Shown: piece by piece, positions 3,739 to 40,451 of the stretch
Position numbering within the stretch: the first letter of the stretch is position 1
Layout of the letters: every line of letters starts with the position of its first letter
Source of the DNA: a virus
Taxonomy: Duplodnaviria > Caudoviricetes
Direction: 5' to 3' (one strand)
Length of the DNA: 40,451 nucleotides
IMG/VR virus record: IMGVR_UViG_3300037195_000340
Location: 1-40,451 of that record
Made by a program: the position numbers and the translations under genes
The notes under the pieces: generated by a model
Database searches by the model: none
The model's input: the letters and a program-made list of their open reading frames with translations, nothing else
What the model was told of the DNA's origin: nothing

Positions 3739-3968
3739 TATTCTTCTCCTACTGTAAATGGCAAATCCTCAACAGCCGTAACTGTCTCATATAATTCACC
3801 AAGATTTTTATTTTCTGTTGGGTCTGCTTGTACATTATTCTCTTTAAGGAAACGTATAGCAGCCCCTAAGTCCTGAGCTGTTGCTTCACCAGACTTTATC
3901 TTATCAATTAGGTCTTTAGCTACTAATCCATGTAGCTGATCTAATAATTCTTCTGTTGCTTTACTCAT
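3738..3968 (-). CDS. Terminase small subunit (T7 gp18-like)
   Basis: LHGLVAKDLIDKIKSGEATAQDLGAAIRFLKENN pattern and synteny. Confidence 0.85.
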   Translation of the reverse strand: MSKATEELLDQLHGLVAKDLIDKIKSGEATAQDLGAAIRFLKENNVQADPTENKNLGELYETVTAVEDLPFTVGEE

Positions 3969-4303
3969 TTAACAACTCCTTTTATCTTTTCAAAACTACG
4001 TAAAGATGCATAACCTAATAAATAGTATAACATTTCTGTAGCTGATGTAAGGTCATGTTTTGGTAGTCCAAATAAAGGTTGTACTAAGTTATATATGAAA
4101 CTAAATACACAAATATAAGCTAGTAAGGGTCTCCATGAAGATTGGAACCAATTACCTTTAGCATCTGCTTCGTTAATTCTTTGACTACTGGTATCATGCT
4201 TAGTCAGTATCTCAGTAAGTTTAGCTTCTGCCTTTAAACGTTCTTCATCGCTTGTAAATAAATCATCTAAACCATTGAGTATACTACTTATTAAGTTACC
4301 CAT
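3965..4303 (-). CDS. Holin (GTA-holin/3TM-like family)
   Basis: DDLFTSDEER...SSWRPLLAY...LLGYASLRSFEKIKGV family pattern; hydrophobic segments. Confidence 0.75.
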   Translation of the reverse strand: MGNLISSILNGLDDLFTSDEERLKAEAKLTEILTKHDTSSQRINEADAKGNWFQSSWRPLLAYICVFSFIYNLVQPLFGLPKHDLTSATEMLYYLLGYASLRSFEKIKGVVK

Positions 4304-4316
4304 CTTTATCTCCTTA

Positions 4317-4562
4317 TTATAATATTTTAAATCTAATTAAAGTAAAAAGTATTGAACTGGCAATTACAATACCACCAAAGATTTTATCGTGAGTATCTAT
4401 CCGTTTATCAATACGCTCTAATTTTCTGTCTTGTTCATCAAAGCGTTTATCGCCTTTATCTAGGTTTTCTCTGATGTGCTTTAGTTGTTCTTGGTTGACA
4501 GCTTGTCCTGTCTTGATTTCACCAAGTTCCCTTAGTATCTTGTTTATACTGTCATTTGACAT
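4317..4562 (-). CDS. Coiled-coil protein with C-terminal TM helix (XhlA-like lysis accessory/holin)
   Basis: Heptad-rich N-terminus, C-terminal hydrophobic helix, GGAGG RBS, adjacent to holin. Confidence 0.55.
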   Translation of the reverse strand: MSNDSINKILRELGEIKTGQAVNQEQLKHIRENLDKGDKRFDEQDRKLERIDKRIDTHDKIFGGIVIASSILFTLIRFKIL

Positions 4563-4630
4563 TGTACCTCCTTGTTTTAAAGGTTAGGTATAAAATTTTA
4601 AAATTCTTACCTCCTGTTTAAAATGAAAAT

Positions 4631-4716
4631 TGAGCAGTTTGAATCTCATACTCAGGAGCTATAGCATCGAAACACTATAGGGGATATTGAGCAGTTTTAG
4701 TACAATACTCAGGTAC
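4631..4716 (-). ncRNA. Structured RNA: H-type pseudoknot, UUCG hairpin, H-type pseudoknot
   Basis: GUAC-C-UGAGUA-UU-GUAC-UAAAAC-UGCUCA (4688-4716); CUAUAGUGU-UUCG-AUGCUAUAG (4659-4680); CUC-C-UGAGUA-U-GAG-AUUCAAAC-UGCUCA (4631-4658); stem 1 differs in sequence between copies but pairs in both. Confidence 0.65.
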
Positions 4717-4753
4717 AAATGAATCGTTAGACAATTATCATCGGGTTAAGTTA

Positions 4754-4864
4754 TTACTCGTTTGATACTCTCTTCTCAAATTGATGATCGTCCTTAATAT
4801 GGGATTTCAAATCCTTTCTAATCCCTTTTACCTCTTCATAAAGTAATTTTTCAAATTCAGTCAT
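4754..4864 (-). CDS. 36-aa coiled-coil ORF, possibly a truncated remnant
   Basis: MTEFEKLLYEEVKGIRKDLKSHIKDDHQFEKRVSNE immediately after the tail fibre stop, with AGGA upstream. Confidence 0.4.
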   Translation of the reverse strand: MTEFEKLLYEEVKGIRKDLKSHIKDDHQFEKRVSNE

Positions 4865-4872
4865 ACTATTTC

Positions 4873-7752
4873 CTATGAGTAAAGCGGTCTTGCTGTGTCG
4901 TAGTAGTCGAAAGGGTAAACAATATCAGCGTCCGATGTATATGCTCCCCCATACGTGATTGTTAAATCACCCTCGTTTGCACCGTCATAATAATATGTAA
5001 TATCAACATAATTAGTATTTGTTCCGATAATATTCTGGTAGGCGTCGATACTTGTGAGCTTGTGCCAGATGGCACCAACTGGCTTGAGTGTATTAGGCAG
5101 TCCAGTCAATTTAGTTCCCGATGTTCCATCAACACCCCTCCTAAACACCTGATACCAAACATCGTTTACTTTAATCCTCTTCCCGAATACTGCGTACTCG
5201 TTACCGTCGGCGATGATTTCGTCGACTGGGATTGAGATGGCTTGTTTATCAAAAACAGGAGACACTTGGATAAAAGAGTTTATACCTGTTAGATTATTGT
5301 CTCCGTAAATAAAGTCATTAGAGCTAGCAGATGCGTCTATCTCAATTACTCCTGTAGGCGACTCAACTATCAGACTAGCACCGAAAGGTTGAATATGTGC
5401 ATCGTGATCGGTGTCCAATCTAAGTGATTTTAAAGTGCTAGTACCATCCGTTATATCAATGGTTAATGAACCGGAGCCACTAGCTCGAGTCATCATACTG
5501 GATAAATCTACAAGATGCTTAGTATTCGGAGCCACATTAAATGTAGTTACCGTGGCTGTTCCTGTAATATTTGAAGGGATTGTGTACTCTTGCACTTCTC
5601 CAAAATCCACCTCACTCATAATAGAGCGACGGTTTACTGCTTCGGTGATGTTGAGGTAGTTGAACCCTTCAGAATCATTGATTGTACCACCTGTATCCAT
5701 TCTAATCGAAATTATGTCTCCAGCAACAAGATCACTAATACCGCTGCACTCGCCTGCTGCAACAGAGGAAGCCGTCGTTTTAACACCTCCTGTAGCATAG
5801 AAAGACCCGTTTACGTATACATCCATCCTCCTGTCACCTGATGATGTGAATCTGGCACCGAACGACAAGTCAATTATACTGCTGCTAGATTGCACAGTGT
5901 ATTGAAAATTTATCGTATCCCACCCTTTTCCACTCGCTTGATAAGGAATATTTTCAGTATCAGCAGTGATTGCCTCATCGTCAGCATTTCGCGCTACTAC
6001 ACTATTAACCTCAACCCATTGCCCAATACTTCTAGGATTAGAATCCGACTGAATAAAGTCTACATAAAATAGATTAGCAGCAGTTCCAAGCTCAGATACA
6101 AATTTAAACGTGCATTTTCTATCGAGGCTTCCATGTCTCCAAGGCAGCATCCAATCTATGTTAATTGTTTTAAATCTTGCTTCTGATATAAAAGGCAGTC
6201 CACTTCCAGTTTGTTTAAGGTCTACTGATCGAACTAAATTACCATCAAAGTCATAAACTTCAAAAGTAACAGGATTCCCATCGTAATTCATATAGCTCAA
6301 TGTCGTCTGGTTGCTTTGAGCATCAACAGCTCTGTAAGGTATCTCGACTTCTATCTCTGCGCTATCATTTGCAGCAGGTAGGTCGATGCTAAACGATTGT
6401 GACCCATCTAGTCCACCAACGTACGTTGTTCCACCCTGTAGTGAAACAGCTCCTGTACCTGTGGTTGTCCAATTCTCAAGTAATACGGTATCTGCTGAGA
6501 CTAACCCCCATGAAGTTGCTGAACCTGAACCTCCAGAACCTCCTGATTCCACTAGAGCACCATCTGTAATAGTGTAACTCTTTTTTAAATCAGTAGCATA
6601 TACTTTTTCACCCTCAGTTCCAGAAGAAGAAGCATAAGATGTTAGATTAGTTAAAGTATCTTTTCTAGGTACAAGTTTCTCAGTATCAGTTATACTTGCA
6701 CCTTGTAACGTCTTATTAGTAAGTGTTTGTATCTCAGTTGTACCTACTATCTCAGTAACACCGTGTGTACTCGTATCGGCTTCGTGTGTCGCTAAGTCAC
6801 CACCGATTGTTCCTGCAGATTCAACTGCTGTCTCTAACTCCTGTAGAGCACCTTTAACATTGTTATCATCTGTTATAGTGCTACCACTAAAAGTACCTAA
6901 GTCTTGGTCTGATAGAGTTACACCTAAAATTGACTCGGTGTCACTAAGTGCTGTTGTATTGACTGATGTTGTATTCTGTAAAGCACTTATGTCTGATTCA
7001 TTTTGTGATACTCTGTTGGTTAGTAATGTCATAGCATTTTGTAACGCTAGGATATCACTTTGGTTAACCGTGATTGTATCTAGTTCTACATAGCTGACAA
7101 TGCGTTGCATGTTACCTACATCAAATACAGGTGCAGGATTTAGCTCAGTTGTTACTTTATACAGAATATTACTATGTTCTATTAAAGCTCCTACTTTATA
7201 AATCTCACCTTGTGTATATGTTCTAATACCTAATAGTTCTAAAACAGTACCTAAGTTAGTAGCTGAATCTTCATTAGTAGGGTCTCCTACGTTGACAATT
7301 TCTGCTGTATTAGCATCGACTGTATTAGTAACTGGGTCATACTGTAGTGAACCATTTAAAAAGTTGTCATACGCTTCTTGTAATAAATAAAATGTTTGAT
7401 TAGCATTTAAGTCCAGTTCTTCCTCGGTAAGATTAGCACCGTCTTGAAAATCAACAAGTCTTGTGTCTAACTGTGTTGATCTGTTAATAGTTAGTGGTAC
7501 CTGTGTTTCACCTGCTATTGGATAAATAGCATTTAGTTTATCCACACCTACCTGAGTCAATTGAATTAAATAATCAGAAGTAAATGTATAATCTGCTGCA
7601 TCAAGTACAGTAGTTTTATCTACTTCTAACTTAAAATCCGTTTGATCTAAATAAGGAAAACTGAACGTAAATGAATCACTAGTATTAAAAGGTAAATCAA
7701 CCAGATATGCTACGATTGTGTTAGCACCAGTGTTTACTTCTATAGCTGCCAT
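4873..7752 (-). CDS. Tail fibre / receptor-binding protein (T7 gp17-like N-terminus)
   Basis: FTFSFPYL...RST..RLVDFQDGANLTEEELDLNANQTFYLLQE gp17 anchor domain, then coiled coil and beta-rich C-terminus. Confidence 0.92.
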   Translation of the reverse strand: MAAIEVNTGANTIVAYLVDLPFNTSDSFTFSFPYLDQTDFKLEVDKTTVLDAADYTFTSDYLIQLTQVGVDKLNAIYPIAGETQVPLTINRSTQLDTRLVDFQDGANLTEEELDLNANQTFYLLQEAYDNFLNGSLQYDPVTNTVDANTAEIVNVGDPTNEDSATNLGTVLELLGIRTYTQGEIYKVGALIEHSNILYKVTTELNPAPVFDVGNMQRIVSYVELDTITVNQSDILALQNAMTLLTNRVSQNESDISALQNTTSVNTTALSDTESILGVTLSDQDLGTFSGSTITDDNNVKGALQELETAVESAGTIGGDLATHEADTSTHGVTEIVGTTEIQTLTNKTLQGASITDTEKLVPRKDTLTNLTSYASSSGTEGEKVYATDLKKSYTITDGALVESGGSGGSGSATSWGLVSADTVLLENWTTTGTGAVSLQGGTTYVGGLDGSQSFSIDLPAANDSAEIEVEIPYRAVDAQSNQTTLSYMNYDGNPVTFEVYDFDGNLVRSVDLKQTGSGLPFISEARFKTINIDWMLPWRHGSLDRKCTFKFVSELGTAANLFYVDFIQSDSNPRSIGQWVEVNSVVARNADDEAITADTENIPYQASGKGWDTINFQYTVQSSSSIIDLSFGARFTSSGDRRMDVYVNGSFYATGGVKTTASSVAAGECSGISDLVAGDIISIRMDTGGTINDSEGFNYLNITEAVNRRSIMSEVDFGEVQEYTIPSNITGTATVTTFNVAPNTKHLVDLSSMMTRASGSGSLTIDITDGTSTLKSLRLDTDHDAHIQPFGASLIVESPTGVIEIDASASSNDFIYGDNNLTGINSFIQVSPVFDKQAISIPVDEIIADGNEYAVFGKRIKVNDVWYQVFRRGVDGTSGTKLTGLPNTLKPVGAIWHKLTSIDAYQNIIGTNTNYVDITYYYDGANEGDLTITYGGAYTSDADIVYPFDYYDTARPLYS

Positions 7753-30302: not shown

Positions 30303-30356
30303 AGTGTCTCCTAGTGATATTAAGCGATACTTAGTACAATAAGAGTAACTGTTTTG

Positions 30357-30399
30357 TTCTCTCATTAGTCTACGCTTTTGAAGTTGTTGAAATCATTGA
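30357..30399 (-). promoter_or_regulatory. Putative phage RNAP promoter (phi1.1B-like position)
   Basis: TCAATGATTTCAACAACTTCAAAAGCGTAGACTAATGAGAGAA. Confidence 0.8.
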
Positions 30400-30411
30400 G
30401 GAATTTCGGGT

Positions 30412-30450
30412 TTCCCTCAGTAGTCTACGCTCTTGAAGTACTTGAAATCA
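30412..30450 (-). promoter_or_regulatory. Putative phage RNAP promoter (phi1.1A-like position)
   Basis: TGATTTCAAGTACTTCAAGAGCGTAGACTACTGAGGGAA, in tandem with the previous copy downstream of the RNAP gene. Confidence 0.8.
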
Positions 30451-30452
30451 CG

Positions 30453-30656
30453 TTACCCTAGCCACGGTTTGTTATTCCTATCTAAGTTATAGATATCTAC
30501 GTTGTAGCATTTATTCAATACATGTAGTATGTTTGATATGATCGTATCATTATAGAGGTGGGAGGTTTTTCCATGTTCTAATACTTCCTCTAACTCTTTA
30601 TGTAGGAACTCTACAGGGTCTTTACGATATTCTGTAAGCATCTCATCTGTTAGCAT
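30453..30656 (-). CDS. Hypothetical protein
   Basis: AAGGAG RBS before MLTDEML. Confidence 0.6.
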   Translation of the reverse strand: MLTDEMLTEYRKDPVEFLHKELEEVLEHGKTSHLYNDTIISNILHVLNKCYNVDIYNLDRNNKPWLG

Positions 30657-34838: not shown

Positions 34839-35383
34839 GCTAAACCTCCCCTTACAACACCCCATACCACCGCTTGCACCTGATGAGGTAGAAGCCCCAA
34901 CTCACTCGCTACCTGCTGATAAGCGGTTTCAATGGGTTTATAAAACTTGTTCTTAGGTTCTAAATTAACTGACCTATAAGCCCATACGTCAACAGTAACA
35001 CAATCACTAGTATCATACCTAAGTATGTTTGTGTAGAAATGTTTTGTCTTGGTACCTCCGAGTATTTTGAGTACTTCATTTTCTTCCTTTGCGTTGATTA
35101 TGTCAATCGCTTTTTGTCTTTGACTTTTGAATGTACATGTCTTAGTTGTCAGTTTTGGTGTTTCTAAGATATCCCAAGCGTCACTTAAGTTCCTAGCCCA
35201 CTTGTTACGTGGTGATAACGCTGAGATCACACCACATGCCTTCCATAGAGGTACCTCGAATACTTGAGATAACAAGACAGCCTCATTGTAAGCCCTGTGA
35301 TACCAAGTGAGACCTTGGTTTAATGTCTGTACATCTGCGGAGTCATAGTGTTTTCTTATCTTTTGTTTAAGTTCTTCTACCAT
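34835..35383 (-). CDS. Phage protein with distant HhH-GPD DNA glycosylase-like features
   Basis: [36 protein letters not shown] pattern; VDVW resembles the EndoIII-family VD motif. Confidence 0.55.
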
Positions 35384-35997
35384 TCGATAGCCTCCTGTTT
35401 AGTTATAAACCCGTGTAAACCTGAGACACATTCTAGTCTTGGGTCGTCGTTGAATGAATCAGGATATACTGTTGTTTTAAGTTTGTATTCTATACCCTGA
35501 TAATGTGTTCCGTGAAATGACACGGTTTCATCTGAAAATAAATTACCTGACATATCTTCCACTTTAATGATCTTTGCTTGAGATACTCTGATTTTTCTTG
35601 AGGAGTAACAGTTTACTCTCTTAGCTTTACTGGGACACCTAAGAGTTAGAATATAGTTTTTATCTGAATTTTTTACCTTTTTATAGAAAGTAAAAGAACC
35701 CTCCTCAGGTACTATAATGTTTTGGGAAAGTCCCTTAGCACCTTCCAAATCAGCGCCTATCAAATTAGCACGTCTCAAATCAGCAAATCTCAAATCAGCT
35801 CGTCTCAAATCAGCACCATACAAATCAGCACCTCTCAAATTAGCACCTATCAAATCAGCACCTCTCAAATTAGCACCTTCCAAATTAGCACCTATCAAAT
35901 CAGCACCTCTCAAATTAGCACCTTCCAAATTAGCACCTCTCAAATCAGCACCTCTCAAATTAGCACCTGCTTTAATTTCATATCCATTAACTTTCAT
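35377..35997 (-). CDS. Pentapeptide-repeat protein with DUF5758-like C-terminal domain
   Basis: A(D/N)LxG repeats, then [12 protein letters not shown]...[25 protein letters not shown]. Confidence 0.85.
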
Positions 35998-36192: not shown

Positions 36193-36555
36193 TTACTCCT
36201 TGTAGTTTCTTATTAGGTCACATGTGTTTATGAAAGAGCCATAGAGAATTATTTGTCTTTCAGTGTAGCCGTTTTGTTCTCCTATAGTTTGATAATGTGT
36301 TATCCAGTGTTTTATAGGATAGTCCTTACATCCTATTTGTATTCTATCTTTGTAACAAATTGCTAGATGTTGTTCCCCTGAGAATGTTAGAATACCTTTA
36401 GCACCTTCCAAATCAGCGCCTATCAAATCAGCACCTCTCAAATCAGCACCTCTCAAATCAGCACCATACAAATCAGCACCATACAAATCAGCACCATACA
36501 AATCAGCACCACTTAAATTAACAAAAGCTTTAATTTCATATCCATTAACTTTCAT
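36193..36555 (-). CDS. Pentapeptide-repeat protein (paralogue 2)
   Basis: [10 protein letters not shown] plus ADLxG repeats and a RIQIGC C-terminal domain; AGGAG RBS. Confidence 0.85.
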   Translation of the reverse strand: MKVNGYEIKAFVNLSGADLYGADLYGADLYGADLRGADLRGADLIGADLEGAKGILTFSGEQHLAICYKDRIQIGCKDYPIKHWITHYQTIGEQNGYTERQIILYGSFINTCDLIRNYKE

Positions 36556-36563
36556 ACTCACTC

Positions 36564-38282: not shown

Positions 38283-38777
38283 CTATTCGGTTATAGATGT
38301 TATAATGCCTTGCTTTAAGGCACACATTTTAATAAATAGTCCGTAAGATTGTACTTGAGATTCGGTGTAGTTATTTTTATGTCCTATAGTTTGATAAAGT
38401 GTTACCCAGAGTTTTATAGAATGGTCTTGACATCCTATTTGTATTCTATCTTTGTAACAAATTGCTAGATGTTGTGCTCCTGTGAAAGATAAGATACCCT
38501 TAGCACGTCTCAAATCAGTACGTCTCAAATCAGCACGTCTCAAATCAGCACCTCTCAAATCAGCAGCACTTAAATCAGCACCTTCCAAATCAGCACCACT
38601 TAAATTAGCACCTATCAAATTAGCATGTCTCAAATCAGCACCTCTCAAATCAGCACCATACAAATTAGCACCTTCCAAATCAGCACCATACAAATTAGCA
38701 CCTTCCAAATCAGCACCATACAAATCAGCGCCTATCAAATCAGCATCTGCTTTAATTTCATATCCATTAACTTTCAT
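38283..38777 (-). CDS. Pentapeptide-repeat protein (paralogue 3)
   Basis: [10 protein letters not shown] plus ADLxG repeats and a RIQIGC C-terminal domain; GGAGG RBS. Confidence 0.85.
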
Positions 38778-38943
38778 GTTTCCCTCCAAAAACCCTTTCA
38801 CCGCCTAATTTAGCTAGCTTATCCTCAGCCTGTTTAAGCGACTCGTTTACACTCATAGGTATACCCATGTATTTGTTCGTCTCGTAAATTTGTCTTGCCA
38901 TCTCGATAATTCTCTTTTGATAAGGTGTTACTACGTTGCTCAT
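38767..38943 (-). CDS. 58-aa hypothetical protein (not in the ORF track)
   Basis: ACAGGAG RBS; [21 protein letters not shown]...GGKHES; stop overlaps the next start region. Confidence 0.6.
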
Positions 38944-40349: not shown

Positions 40350-40451
40350 TATAAAAAAAAAACACAGTGCTATAACAAATAGTGACATAGTTTGTCAATA
40401 TAAAACAAATATTCACACCCAGTAACACCAGTTAACACCCAGTAAACTCTA
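40350..40451. repeat. Direct terminal repeat (early-end copy)
   Basis: Matches 1-101. Confidence 0.85.
40369..40398 (-). promoter_or_regulatory. Host sigma70-like promoter inside the terminal repeat
   Basis: TTGACA-18 bp-TATAGC with TG extension. Confidence 0.55.

Follow-up and report, generated by a model that had tools for sequence, protein, structure and literature searches.

A recurrent small pseudoknot between phage genes and its possible role as a barrier to mRNA decay

A small H-type RNA pseudoknot, found in two copies between the tail fibre gene and the lysis region of a T7-like phage, belongs to a family in which selection acts on the base pairing, as seen at many unrelated phage loci. 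The window analysed here, 40,451 bases, is the whole genome of that phage. By analogy with the resistant RNAs of eukaryotic viruses, we propose, at a probability of about one half, that the units act in cis on polycistronic mRNA as a barrier to decay from the 5′ end. If this is true, phage mRNAs are commonly punctuated by a nuclease-blocking fold known so far from eukaryotic RNA viruses, phage operons have a mechanism for unequal expression of their genes, and a portable 28-nt mRNA stabiliser becomes available for bacteria.

The two units and their surroundings

Both units read on the minus strand. Unit 1 (4716-4688, 29 nt) was recognized in the sequence, by a structural descriptor and by a covariance model match (E 0.003). 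Its stem 1 has 4 bp (4716-4713 with 4703-4700) and its stem 2 has 6 bp, including one U-G (4711-4706 with 4693-4688); loop 1 is the single base C4712, loop 2 has 2 nt, and loop 3 has 6 nt, ending AAAC. Unit 2 (4658-4631, 28 nt), recognized in the sequence, by the descriptor and in an alignment of 24 copies, has a stem 1 of 3 bp (4658-4656 with 4647-4645) and a stem 2 of 6 bp (4654-4649 with 4636-4631), with C4655 as loop 1, a loop 2 of 1 nt and a loop 3 of 8 nt, again ending AAAC. Between the units lie a 7-nt linker and then a 9-bp hairpin with a UUCG loop (4680-4659, minus strand), found by folding, which is specific to this locus. The hairpin contains two G-U pairs, and its UUCG is closed by U-A; the extra-stable form of this tetraloop has a C-G closing pair. 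The minus strand is favoured because the U-G pair of stem 2 turns into a C-A mismatch on the plus strand.

The descriptor finds exactly these two units in the window, as against a mean of 0.02 in 100 random sequences matched to the window in dinucleotide content. The preliminary description of two H-type units flanking a 9-bp UUCG hairpin is borne out. A looser stem 2 pattern gave 3 matches in the window (0.31 expected), and the covariance model matches only the two units there, unit 2 being part of its training set. Nested folding of the 151-nt region, a method that ignores pseudoknots, was not significant (z -1.05). The two units are 57 nt apart and 70% alike over 50 nt. No terminator-like site was found on the minus strand. 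A T7-like promoter inside the hairpin was considered and rejected, the 9-mer being no commoner than chance.

The genome carries an exact 98-nt end repeat (4-101 and 40354-40451) and encodes its own RNA polymerase (about 30-34% identity to the best annotated phages). Units of 20 nt and 10 nt form tandem arrays close to each end of the genome (62-290; 40241-40337), and the early region holds three paralogous pentapeptide-repeat genes (35377-35997, 36193-36561 and 38283-38801, minus strand). A 50-nt intergenic repeat occurs three times (1298-1347, 30350-30399 and 30405-30454; 78-88% alike), two of the copies lying just 3′ of the RNA polymerase region; it is a candidate phage promoter.

All annotated genes flanking the gap are on the minus strand, in the order tail fibre (4873-7752), gap, an 81-aa ORF (4317-4562), holin (3965-4303; phrog_3427, PF11351 GTA_holin_3TM), small terminase, protease-like gene and large terminase. 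The gap is intergenic, as first described, insofar as it lies between annotated genes, but it does hold a 36-codon ORF (4864-4754, minus strand) with an SD-like site at 4874-4869. This ORF has no family match and looks like the beginning of a coiled-coil protein; 38 nt separate the end of its stop from the unit 1 core. An orphan SD-like AGGAGG (4610-4615, minus strand) follows unit 2 by 15 nt, with ATG, GTG and TTG absent at SD spacing. The 36-codon ORF and the orphan site may be remnants of genes lost from the gap. The 81-aa ORF, which starts 68 nt after unit 2, has a coiled-coil and a C-terminal hydrophobic segment. It gave no Pfam match, no NCBIfam match over the cut-off, and only weak PHROGs matches of unknown function; a search for relatives found none. 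By language-model features it would fall near XhlA-like small membrane proteins, which we take as a lead. Its SD (4567-4572, minus strand) is complementary to the 5′ strand of unit 2.

A widespread phage family with covarying stems

Viral contigs were scanned with three different exact patterns, for which we estimate about 480, 1,400 and 1,100 matching stretches; at least 121, at least 124 and at least 141 matches, respectively, were listed. Each pattern left part of the structure free, which allows an unbiased test of pairing. With stem 2 fixed and stem 1 free, 84 of the 104 distinct matches listed form at least 3 bp, whereas shuffling of partners gives an expectation of 16.4 (maximum 29). 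When stem 1 was fixed instead, at least five of the six stem 2 pairs are present in 106 of 124 matches listed, where 4.2 would be expected, and compensatory changes are numerous. Stem 2 also pairs in 102 of 119 matches listed when only its 3′ arm and two 5′ positions were free. In the alignment of 24 copies, which were hand-picked, 99.1% of the cells are paired, as against 22-43% in slid controls, and two-sided changes are seen in 5 of the 9 pairs. The C-G closing pair is present in 24/24 and the two other stem 1 pairs covary. Invariance is seen at the loop-closing C-G, at the C of loop 1, at the A-U pair where the helices join, and in AAAC. The CUC/GAG stem 1 of unit 2 is an ordinary variant (5/84 among the matches listed). 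The selection on a pseudoknotted RNA that had been proposed for this gap is thus confirmed by covariation of both stems over many unrelated phage loci.

Annotated phages of Nostoc, Synechococcus, Paracoccus, Staphylococcus, Bacillus, Mycobacterium and Vibrio carry confirmed copies; cultured carriers include Synechococcus phage S-EIVl, Paracoccus phage ParMal1 and Mycobacterium smegmatis phage Labelle. Among 116 distinct matches in contigs of bacterial and archaeal genomes, 60 form stem 1, and many of the remaining ones look like chance coding matches. L495 was rejected as a family copy, being a chance match in coding sequence. Compared with cultured and annotated phages, the whole element gave only a partial match, in a crAss-like phage. 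One 37-nt query had no match in 5,426 E. coli genomes, a search that sequence variants would escape. As an observation in its own right, a complete copy occupies the first spacer of a CRISPR-like array (L496:257-395, plus strand); presumably it is derived from a phage.

Rfam does not cover the motif: nothing was matched in the window at gathering scores, nothing meaningful in 4500-4950 at E up to 10, and no family overlaid the motif in 20 homologous loci at E up to 5. In forty further loci Rfam recognized nothing but flanking tRNA, tmRNA and DUF2800, apart from a single hammerhead. The idea that self-cleaving ribozymes usually precede the copies is therefore unsupported. The M23 motif (RF03006) matched 0/5 motif-carrying records at E up to 10 and nothing in 4500-4950 or the 20 loci.

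The preliminary description had also seen in the tandem arrangement and its UUCG hairpin a candidate new RNA system. The distribution of copies does not favour this. Of 353 distinct copies, no more than 11 have another copy within 120 nt. A search targeted at tandems gave 71 distinct close pairs, 38 of them with two complete pseudoknots; their linkers are 5-35 nt long and unconserved, a hairpin fold is present in 11/38, and the only UUCG hairpin among the 38 is in a record identical to the window over 4,065 bases (L769). A hairpin of -5 kcal/mol or better lies downstream of 35 of 123 copies and upstream of 60, and around single copies UUCG occurs about equally on the two sides (9 downstream, 8 upstream). 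We infer that the hairpin is an incidental linker and not a conserved part of the family. The tandem-plus-UUCG layout before the lysis genes is a local, ordinary instance of the family and not a separate system.

Longer arrays, of 3-5 copies, do exist (L712, L719, L775 and L778). In L719 (2001-2125, plus strand) about four divergent units with 3-4 nt linkers stand before a scaffold gene, and relatives of this array are found in prophage-like contigs (L720, L721, L724, L725, L734, L739, L742). The most antitoxin-like layout seen is in L775 (288-450, minus strand), where at least five near-identical units are separated by a G-rich 16-nt linker; the ORF flanking this array has no Pfam match.

Tandem pseudoknots bring to mind the type III toxin-antitoxin systems. 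ToxI, CptI and the pseudo-ToxI of phage phiTE (PMC5086642) are also small H-type pseudoknots that can be tandem, and the units had been considered a decoy antitoxin against a host type III (ToxIN-like) RNase. Such a decoy would not require a toxin gene nearby, and the arrays of 3-5 copies are in its favour. However, in the available sections of the same paper the ToxI/CptI antitoxins are arrays of near-identical repeats before a terminator and toxin gene, specific to their own toxin and not neutralising across systems, whereas the core of the present family is near-invariant across unrelated hosts of many phyla. Copies are mostly single and tied to stop codons. No ToxI match was found in Rfam, and the window has no terminator-toxin cassette. 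To look at neighbours of the copies we scanned for families 116 of 138 downstream ORFs, 119 of 124 upstream ORFs and 83 of 108 ORFs beside tandems; most of the ORFs omitted were called on the opposite strand or lay farther away. The 318 ORFs scanned include no ToxN-type, DUF3800 or holin family, and only 42/116, 38/119 and 13/83 of them have any Pfam match. Beside bacterial copies, too, no toxin family was found among the ORFs scanned, a check that had been named earlier. A decoy is very improbable.

The same scan bears on lysis. The units had been put forward as a leader that times holin expression. This is unlikely: no holin family was found beside the other copies among the ORFs scanned, and the motif is absent from all 80 loci that surround relatives of the small terminase, although these relatives are distant (57% identity at best). 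A more local form of control would have unit 2 switch between the pseudoknot and pairing of its 5′ strand with the 81-aa gene's SD, and so gate the genes of the lysis region. Nested folding does pair 4658-4655 with 4568-4571 at a probability of about 0.67, and the gene, which may be XhlA-like, precedes the holin. The nested calculation, however, cannot include the pseudoknot, the CUC/GAG stem is ordinary in the family, and no independent relative was found from which conservation could be judged. What stands of the proposed local control is the predicted capacity of unit 2 to pair with the SD, and what falls is a lysis-specific family; we consider such a switch quite unlikely.

Position on translated messages and resistance to decay

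The copies are placed in a definite manner relative to genes. It should be noted that the flanking ORFs were called by a simple script, and individual calls may be wrong. Sufficient flanking sequence was available for 149 viral copies; 123 of them fall outside called ORFs, while 82% of random positions fall within one. In 114/123 cases the copy and its upstream ORF share a strand, in 101/123 the copy and its downstream ORF do, and after 21/123 an opposite-strand ORF is called. All 42 multi-copy loci carry their copies on one strand. In 24 of the 149 copies exactly 6 nt separate the upstream stop from the core, and in none is the distance 0-5 nt. After clustering to 115 independent contexts, 16 remain at 6 nt and none at 0-5 nt, and two cases use the motif's own UGA. 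The mRNA-channel spacer of the ribosome is given as 6-8 nt (PMC3561942, in its available part). The closeness of the two distances suggests that the fold must survive a ribosome terminating just upstream. The stop spacing points to a role on translated mRNA, and argues against a single-stranded DNA element or a free small RNA.

The next start is often 19-28 nt downstream, and the 3′ flank of the copies is G-poor. The neighbours are a mixture of scaffold, SSB, DUF932 and helicase genes with many unknowns. Near a tRNA (within 150 nt) lie 16 of 189 copies, most of them 3-13 nt upstream of it. One set of related phage contigs, which are multi-copy and have DUF932 as well, carries a copy 3-11 nt 5′ of tRNA-Asp (L009, L013, L024, L034-L038, L043, L059, L067 and L074). 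In two other loci the motif abuts the 5′ end of a DUF2800 RNA (RF02960) with no gap (L437:2501-2686, plus strand; L490:143-325, minus strand).

As a barrier to decay, the pseudoknot would work as follows. The fold would stay intact during termination by a ribosome directly 5′ of it. Once the message had been cut upstream or trimmed at its 5′ end, the fold would stop 5′-to-3′ exonucleases of the RNase J type and, in hosts without RNase J, would slow the scanning of RNase E. The downstream message would be kept alive, and the genes on it thereby stabilised. In the window genome the two copies would protect the late message for the XhlA-like gene, the holin and the terminase; they may have come from duplication, or from gene loss between two cassettes. 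The frequent position of copies before scaffold and SSB genes would fit genes needed in bulk.

Several published observations bear on this proposal, each taken from the available part of its source. In vitro, bacterial RNase J1 is blocked by an xrRNA from a plant virus, one that belongs to another class (PMC8826918). H-type pseudoknots with 8-15 coaxial pairs impede scanning by E. coli RNase E in proportion to their size, an 11-bp pseudoknot being only a modest obstacle (PMC9943677); the window units, with 9-10 bp, are smaller still, which counts against a barrier. Most beta- and gamma-proteobacteria are without RNase J, and most gamma-proteobacteria have only RNase E/G (PMC3997798). Since a real copy occurs in Vibrio phages, RNase J could not be the sole target. 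Resistance is also not a general property of pseudoknots: of 17 coremin variants that cause frameshifting, 15 failed to stop Xrn1, as did four frameshift pseudoknots from viruses (PMC10321173). That most pseudoknots are not xrRNAs counts against the barrier, and so do the 21 of 123 copies followed by an opposite-strand ORF.

The wall at 6 nt after the stop would fit equally well a translational insulator, and this too weakens the case for a barrier to decay. As an insulator, the pseudoknot would stand at the entry channel of the terminating ribosome and block post-termination scanning and reinitiation, uncoupling the downstream gene. The sharpness of the wall and the frequency of a start at 19-28 nt are in keeping with this, as is the report that coremin stalls scanning eukaryotic ribosomes and promotes frameshifting in vitro (PMC10321173, PMC10520033, in the parts available). 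Many copies, however, are far from stops, or directly before a tRNA or a DUF2800 RNA, where no ribosome would call for insulation, and in the window the nearest sizeable ORF ends 38 nt ahead of unit 1. An insulator is conceivable, though not probable.

The coupling to the upstream stop, the higher share of same-strand ORFs upstream than downstream, the G-poor 3′ flank and the copies just before tRNAs could also be read the other way round, with the fold capping the upstream fragment against 3′-to-5′ exonucleases after a downstream cut (e.g., by RNase P at a tRNA). But the coremin core has been characterised as a 5′-to-3′ block (PMC10520033, PMC6546385, in the sections available), and a plain hairpin would probably serve to protect a 3′ end without an invariant tertiary core. 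Protection of this kind is unlikely.

A spacer of 6 nt following a stop, together with a size like that of luteovirus pseudoknots, might suggest a stimulator of readthrough or frameshifting. Here the stops themselves speak otherwise: 44 of 63 stop-motif pairs at 6-12 nt have TAA, and most reach another in-frame stop within 20 codons. The copies are, besides, intergenic, and recoding seems extremely improbable. Finally, the invariant unpaired bases could be a binding site for a conserved host or phage protein or for a small ligand, and copies do precede SSB and scaffold genes, which are known for autoregulation. The same motif, however, stands before unrelated genes and tRNAs and in intergenic regions of RNA viruses, and no Rfam riboswitch matched (nor did the M23 model, as noted above). 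We see only a slim chance of such a site, and retain a barrier to 5′-end-dependent decay as the preferred reading.

Likeness to coremin and to other pseudoknots

The closest known counterpart is coremin (xrRNA-C), an RNA described from beny-, cucumo- and other eukaryotic RNA viruses. In the available sections of PMC6546385, its first stem is free in sequence with a pyrimidine-purine closing pair, A16-A20 are essential, its 5′ spacer tolerates insertions, and tandem repeats occur. The loop was later extended to 6-8 nt under a YGNNAD rule, in searches directed at RNA viruses; coremin-type RNAs stall both Xrn1 and scanning ribosomes, and YGNNAD loops are Xrn1-resistant (PMC10520033, in its available part). 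The invariant closing C-G, the loop 1 C, the junction A-U and AAAC are common to coremin and the phage family. In both, a variable 5′ spacer is followed by AAACU, and the element lies shortly after a stop or between genes. Coremin has a free first stem of 3-5 bp with a Y-R closing pair; stem 1 of the window units has 3-4 bp with such a pair. The coremin loop starts with Y and ends with A-D, and that of unit 2 runs from C to A-U, unit 1 having one extra U. It should be noted that some of our scan patterns were built around a common stem 1 sequence, which exaggerates the resemblance to coremin at the level of letters. The search that left stem 1 free showed the invariant core as well.

There are also three clear departures. 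The second loop base is G in coremin (YGAD/YGNNAD) but U in both units and in most copies with an 8-nt loop. The coremin spacer is A-A-C-U-A, whereas in phage copies AAACU is invariant and the next base is mostly G; in both window units it is G and is paired in stem 2. In coremin a second hairpin directly follows the spacer; in the window the hairpin comes 7 nt after unit 1, and unit 2 has none. These three differences count against the barrier. The phage form, with prokaryotic hosts, also uses its 8-9 nt loop to make a canonical 6-bp stem 2, unlike coremin. Hence we do not file the window units as coremin members, although by analogy they probably work like coremin. The structure of coremin was unsolved in 2023 papers, as far as their available text goes, and the canonical stem 2 could serve as a simple model of it.

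A scan with a shorter loop connects the two forms more directly. It gave an estimated 630 or so stretches, with at least 122 listed, and the exact YGNNAD hexaloop form accounts for 67 of 117 distinct short-loop matches listed. RdRP or picorna-type capsid genes are present in seven of 35 hand-picked loci. Ten hexaloop loci, likewise hand-picked, belong to DNA phages or prophages, as judged by flanking genes or by a named-prophage match (L577, L583, L584, L585, L593, L602, L603, L604, L610 and L640). Motifs in these DNA-phage loci lie mostly between minor-head and scaffold genes, and L584 matches Lactobacillus prophage Lj928. The two loop forms take the same positions. Before scaffold genes we find the 8-nt loop in L251, L320, L408, L425, L439 and L702, and the hexaloop in L577, L583, L585, L602, L603, L604 and L610; after DNA polymerase A the 8-nt loop occurs in L248, L301 and L325, and the hexaloop in L640. 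One 28.8-kb contig carries both forms, about 1 kb apart. Conversely, a picorna-like RNA virus contig (L270:1493-1523, minus strand) has the 8-nt-loop, 6-bp form in the intergenic region between the RdRP gene, whose stop lies 9 nt upstream, and an ORF for a picorna-type capsid.

We read the hexaloop and 8-nt-loop forms as probably one superfamily, although convergence is conceivable for so short a motif. More tentatively than for the barrier itself, and short of calling it probable, we suggest that a superfamily of RNA roadblocks spans DNA phages, prophages and eukaryotic RNA viruses, and that the phage form with the long stem is a bacterial xrRNA that carves stable sub-operon mRNAs for bulk genes (scaffold, capsid, SSB), set one ribosome-channel length past the upstream stop. 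Our literature search found no phage coremin-like family or phage xrRNA, the 224 motifs of PMC5737381 and large lists of candidate structured RNAs of phages lying outside its scope. The coremin, pseudoknot and Xrn1 papers it returned are all titled for eukaryotic RNA viruses, exact-motif strings matched only unrelated primer papers, and the available part of PMC12397905 does not mention phage.

Other systems are less similar. The xrRNA-WCC scaffold (PMC10321173) is alike, with a canonical antiparallel stem 2 in both. As described in the available sections, it needs G in loop 1 and has a 3-bp stem 2 (G8-C18) that includes the C of AAAC; the window units, in contrast, have C in loop 1 and a 6-bp stem 2 that begins after AAAC. 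STAXI RNA (RF01728; PMC2864571, in its available part) has the architecture of the window, a pseudoknot repeated two or three times with UUCG tetraloops, but it differs in sequence in the alignment rows compared and has no match at E up to 10 in 4500-4950 or up to 5 in the 20 loci. It comes, moreover, from Enterobacteriales, whereas in the phage family tandem arrangement and UUCG are incidental. PeSL cassettes were rejected as a counterpart: they consist of a promoter and G/C terminator hairpins, and their description mentions no pseudoknot.

Luteoviral -1 frameshift pseudoknots (BWYV type) and pseudoknot 1 of tmRNA share with the phage units a 1-nt loop 1 and an A-rich loop 3. The luteoviral ones differ in that the phage copies are intergenic, with no slippery site seen in the window, and BWYV pseudoknots do not stop Xrn1 according to the available sections of PMC10321173. 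A bacterial tmRNA (L464:250-601, plus strand) itself matches the motif pattern just before its tag reading frame, the place expected of pseudoknot 1.
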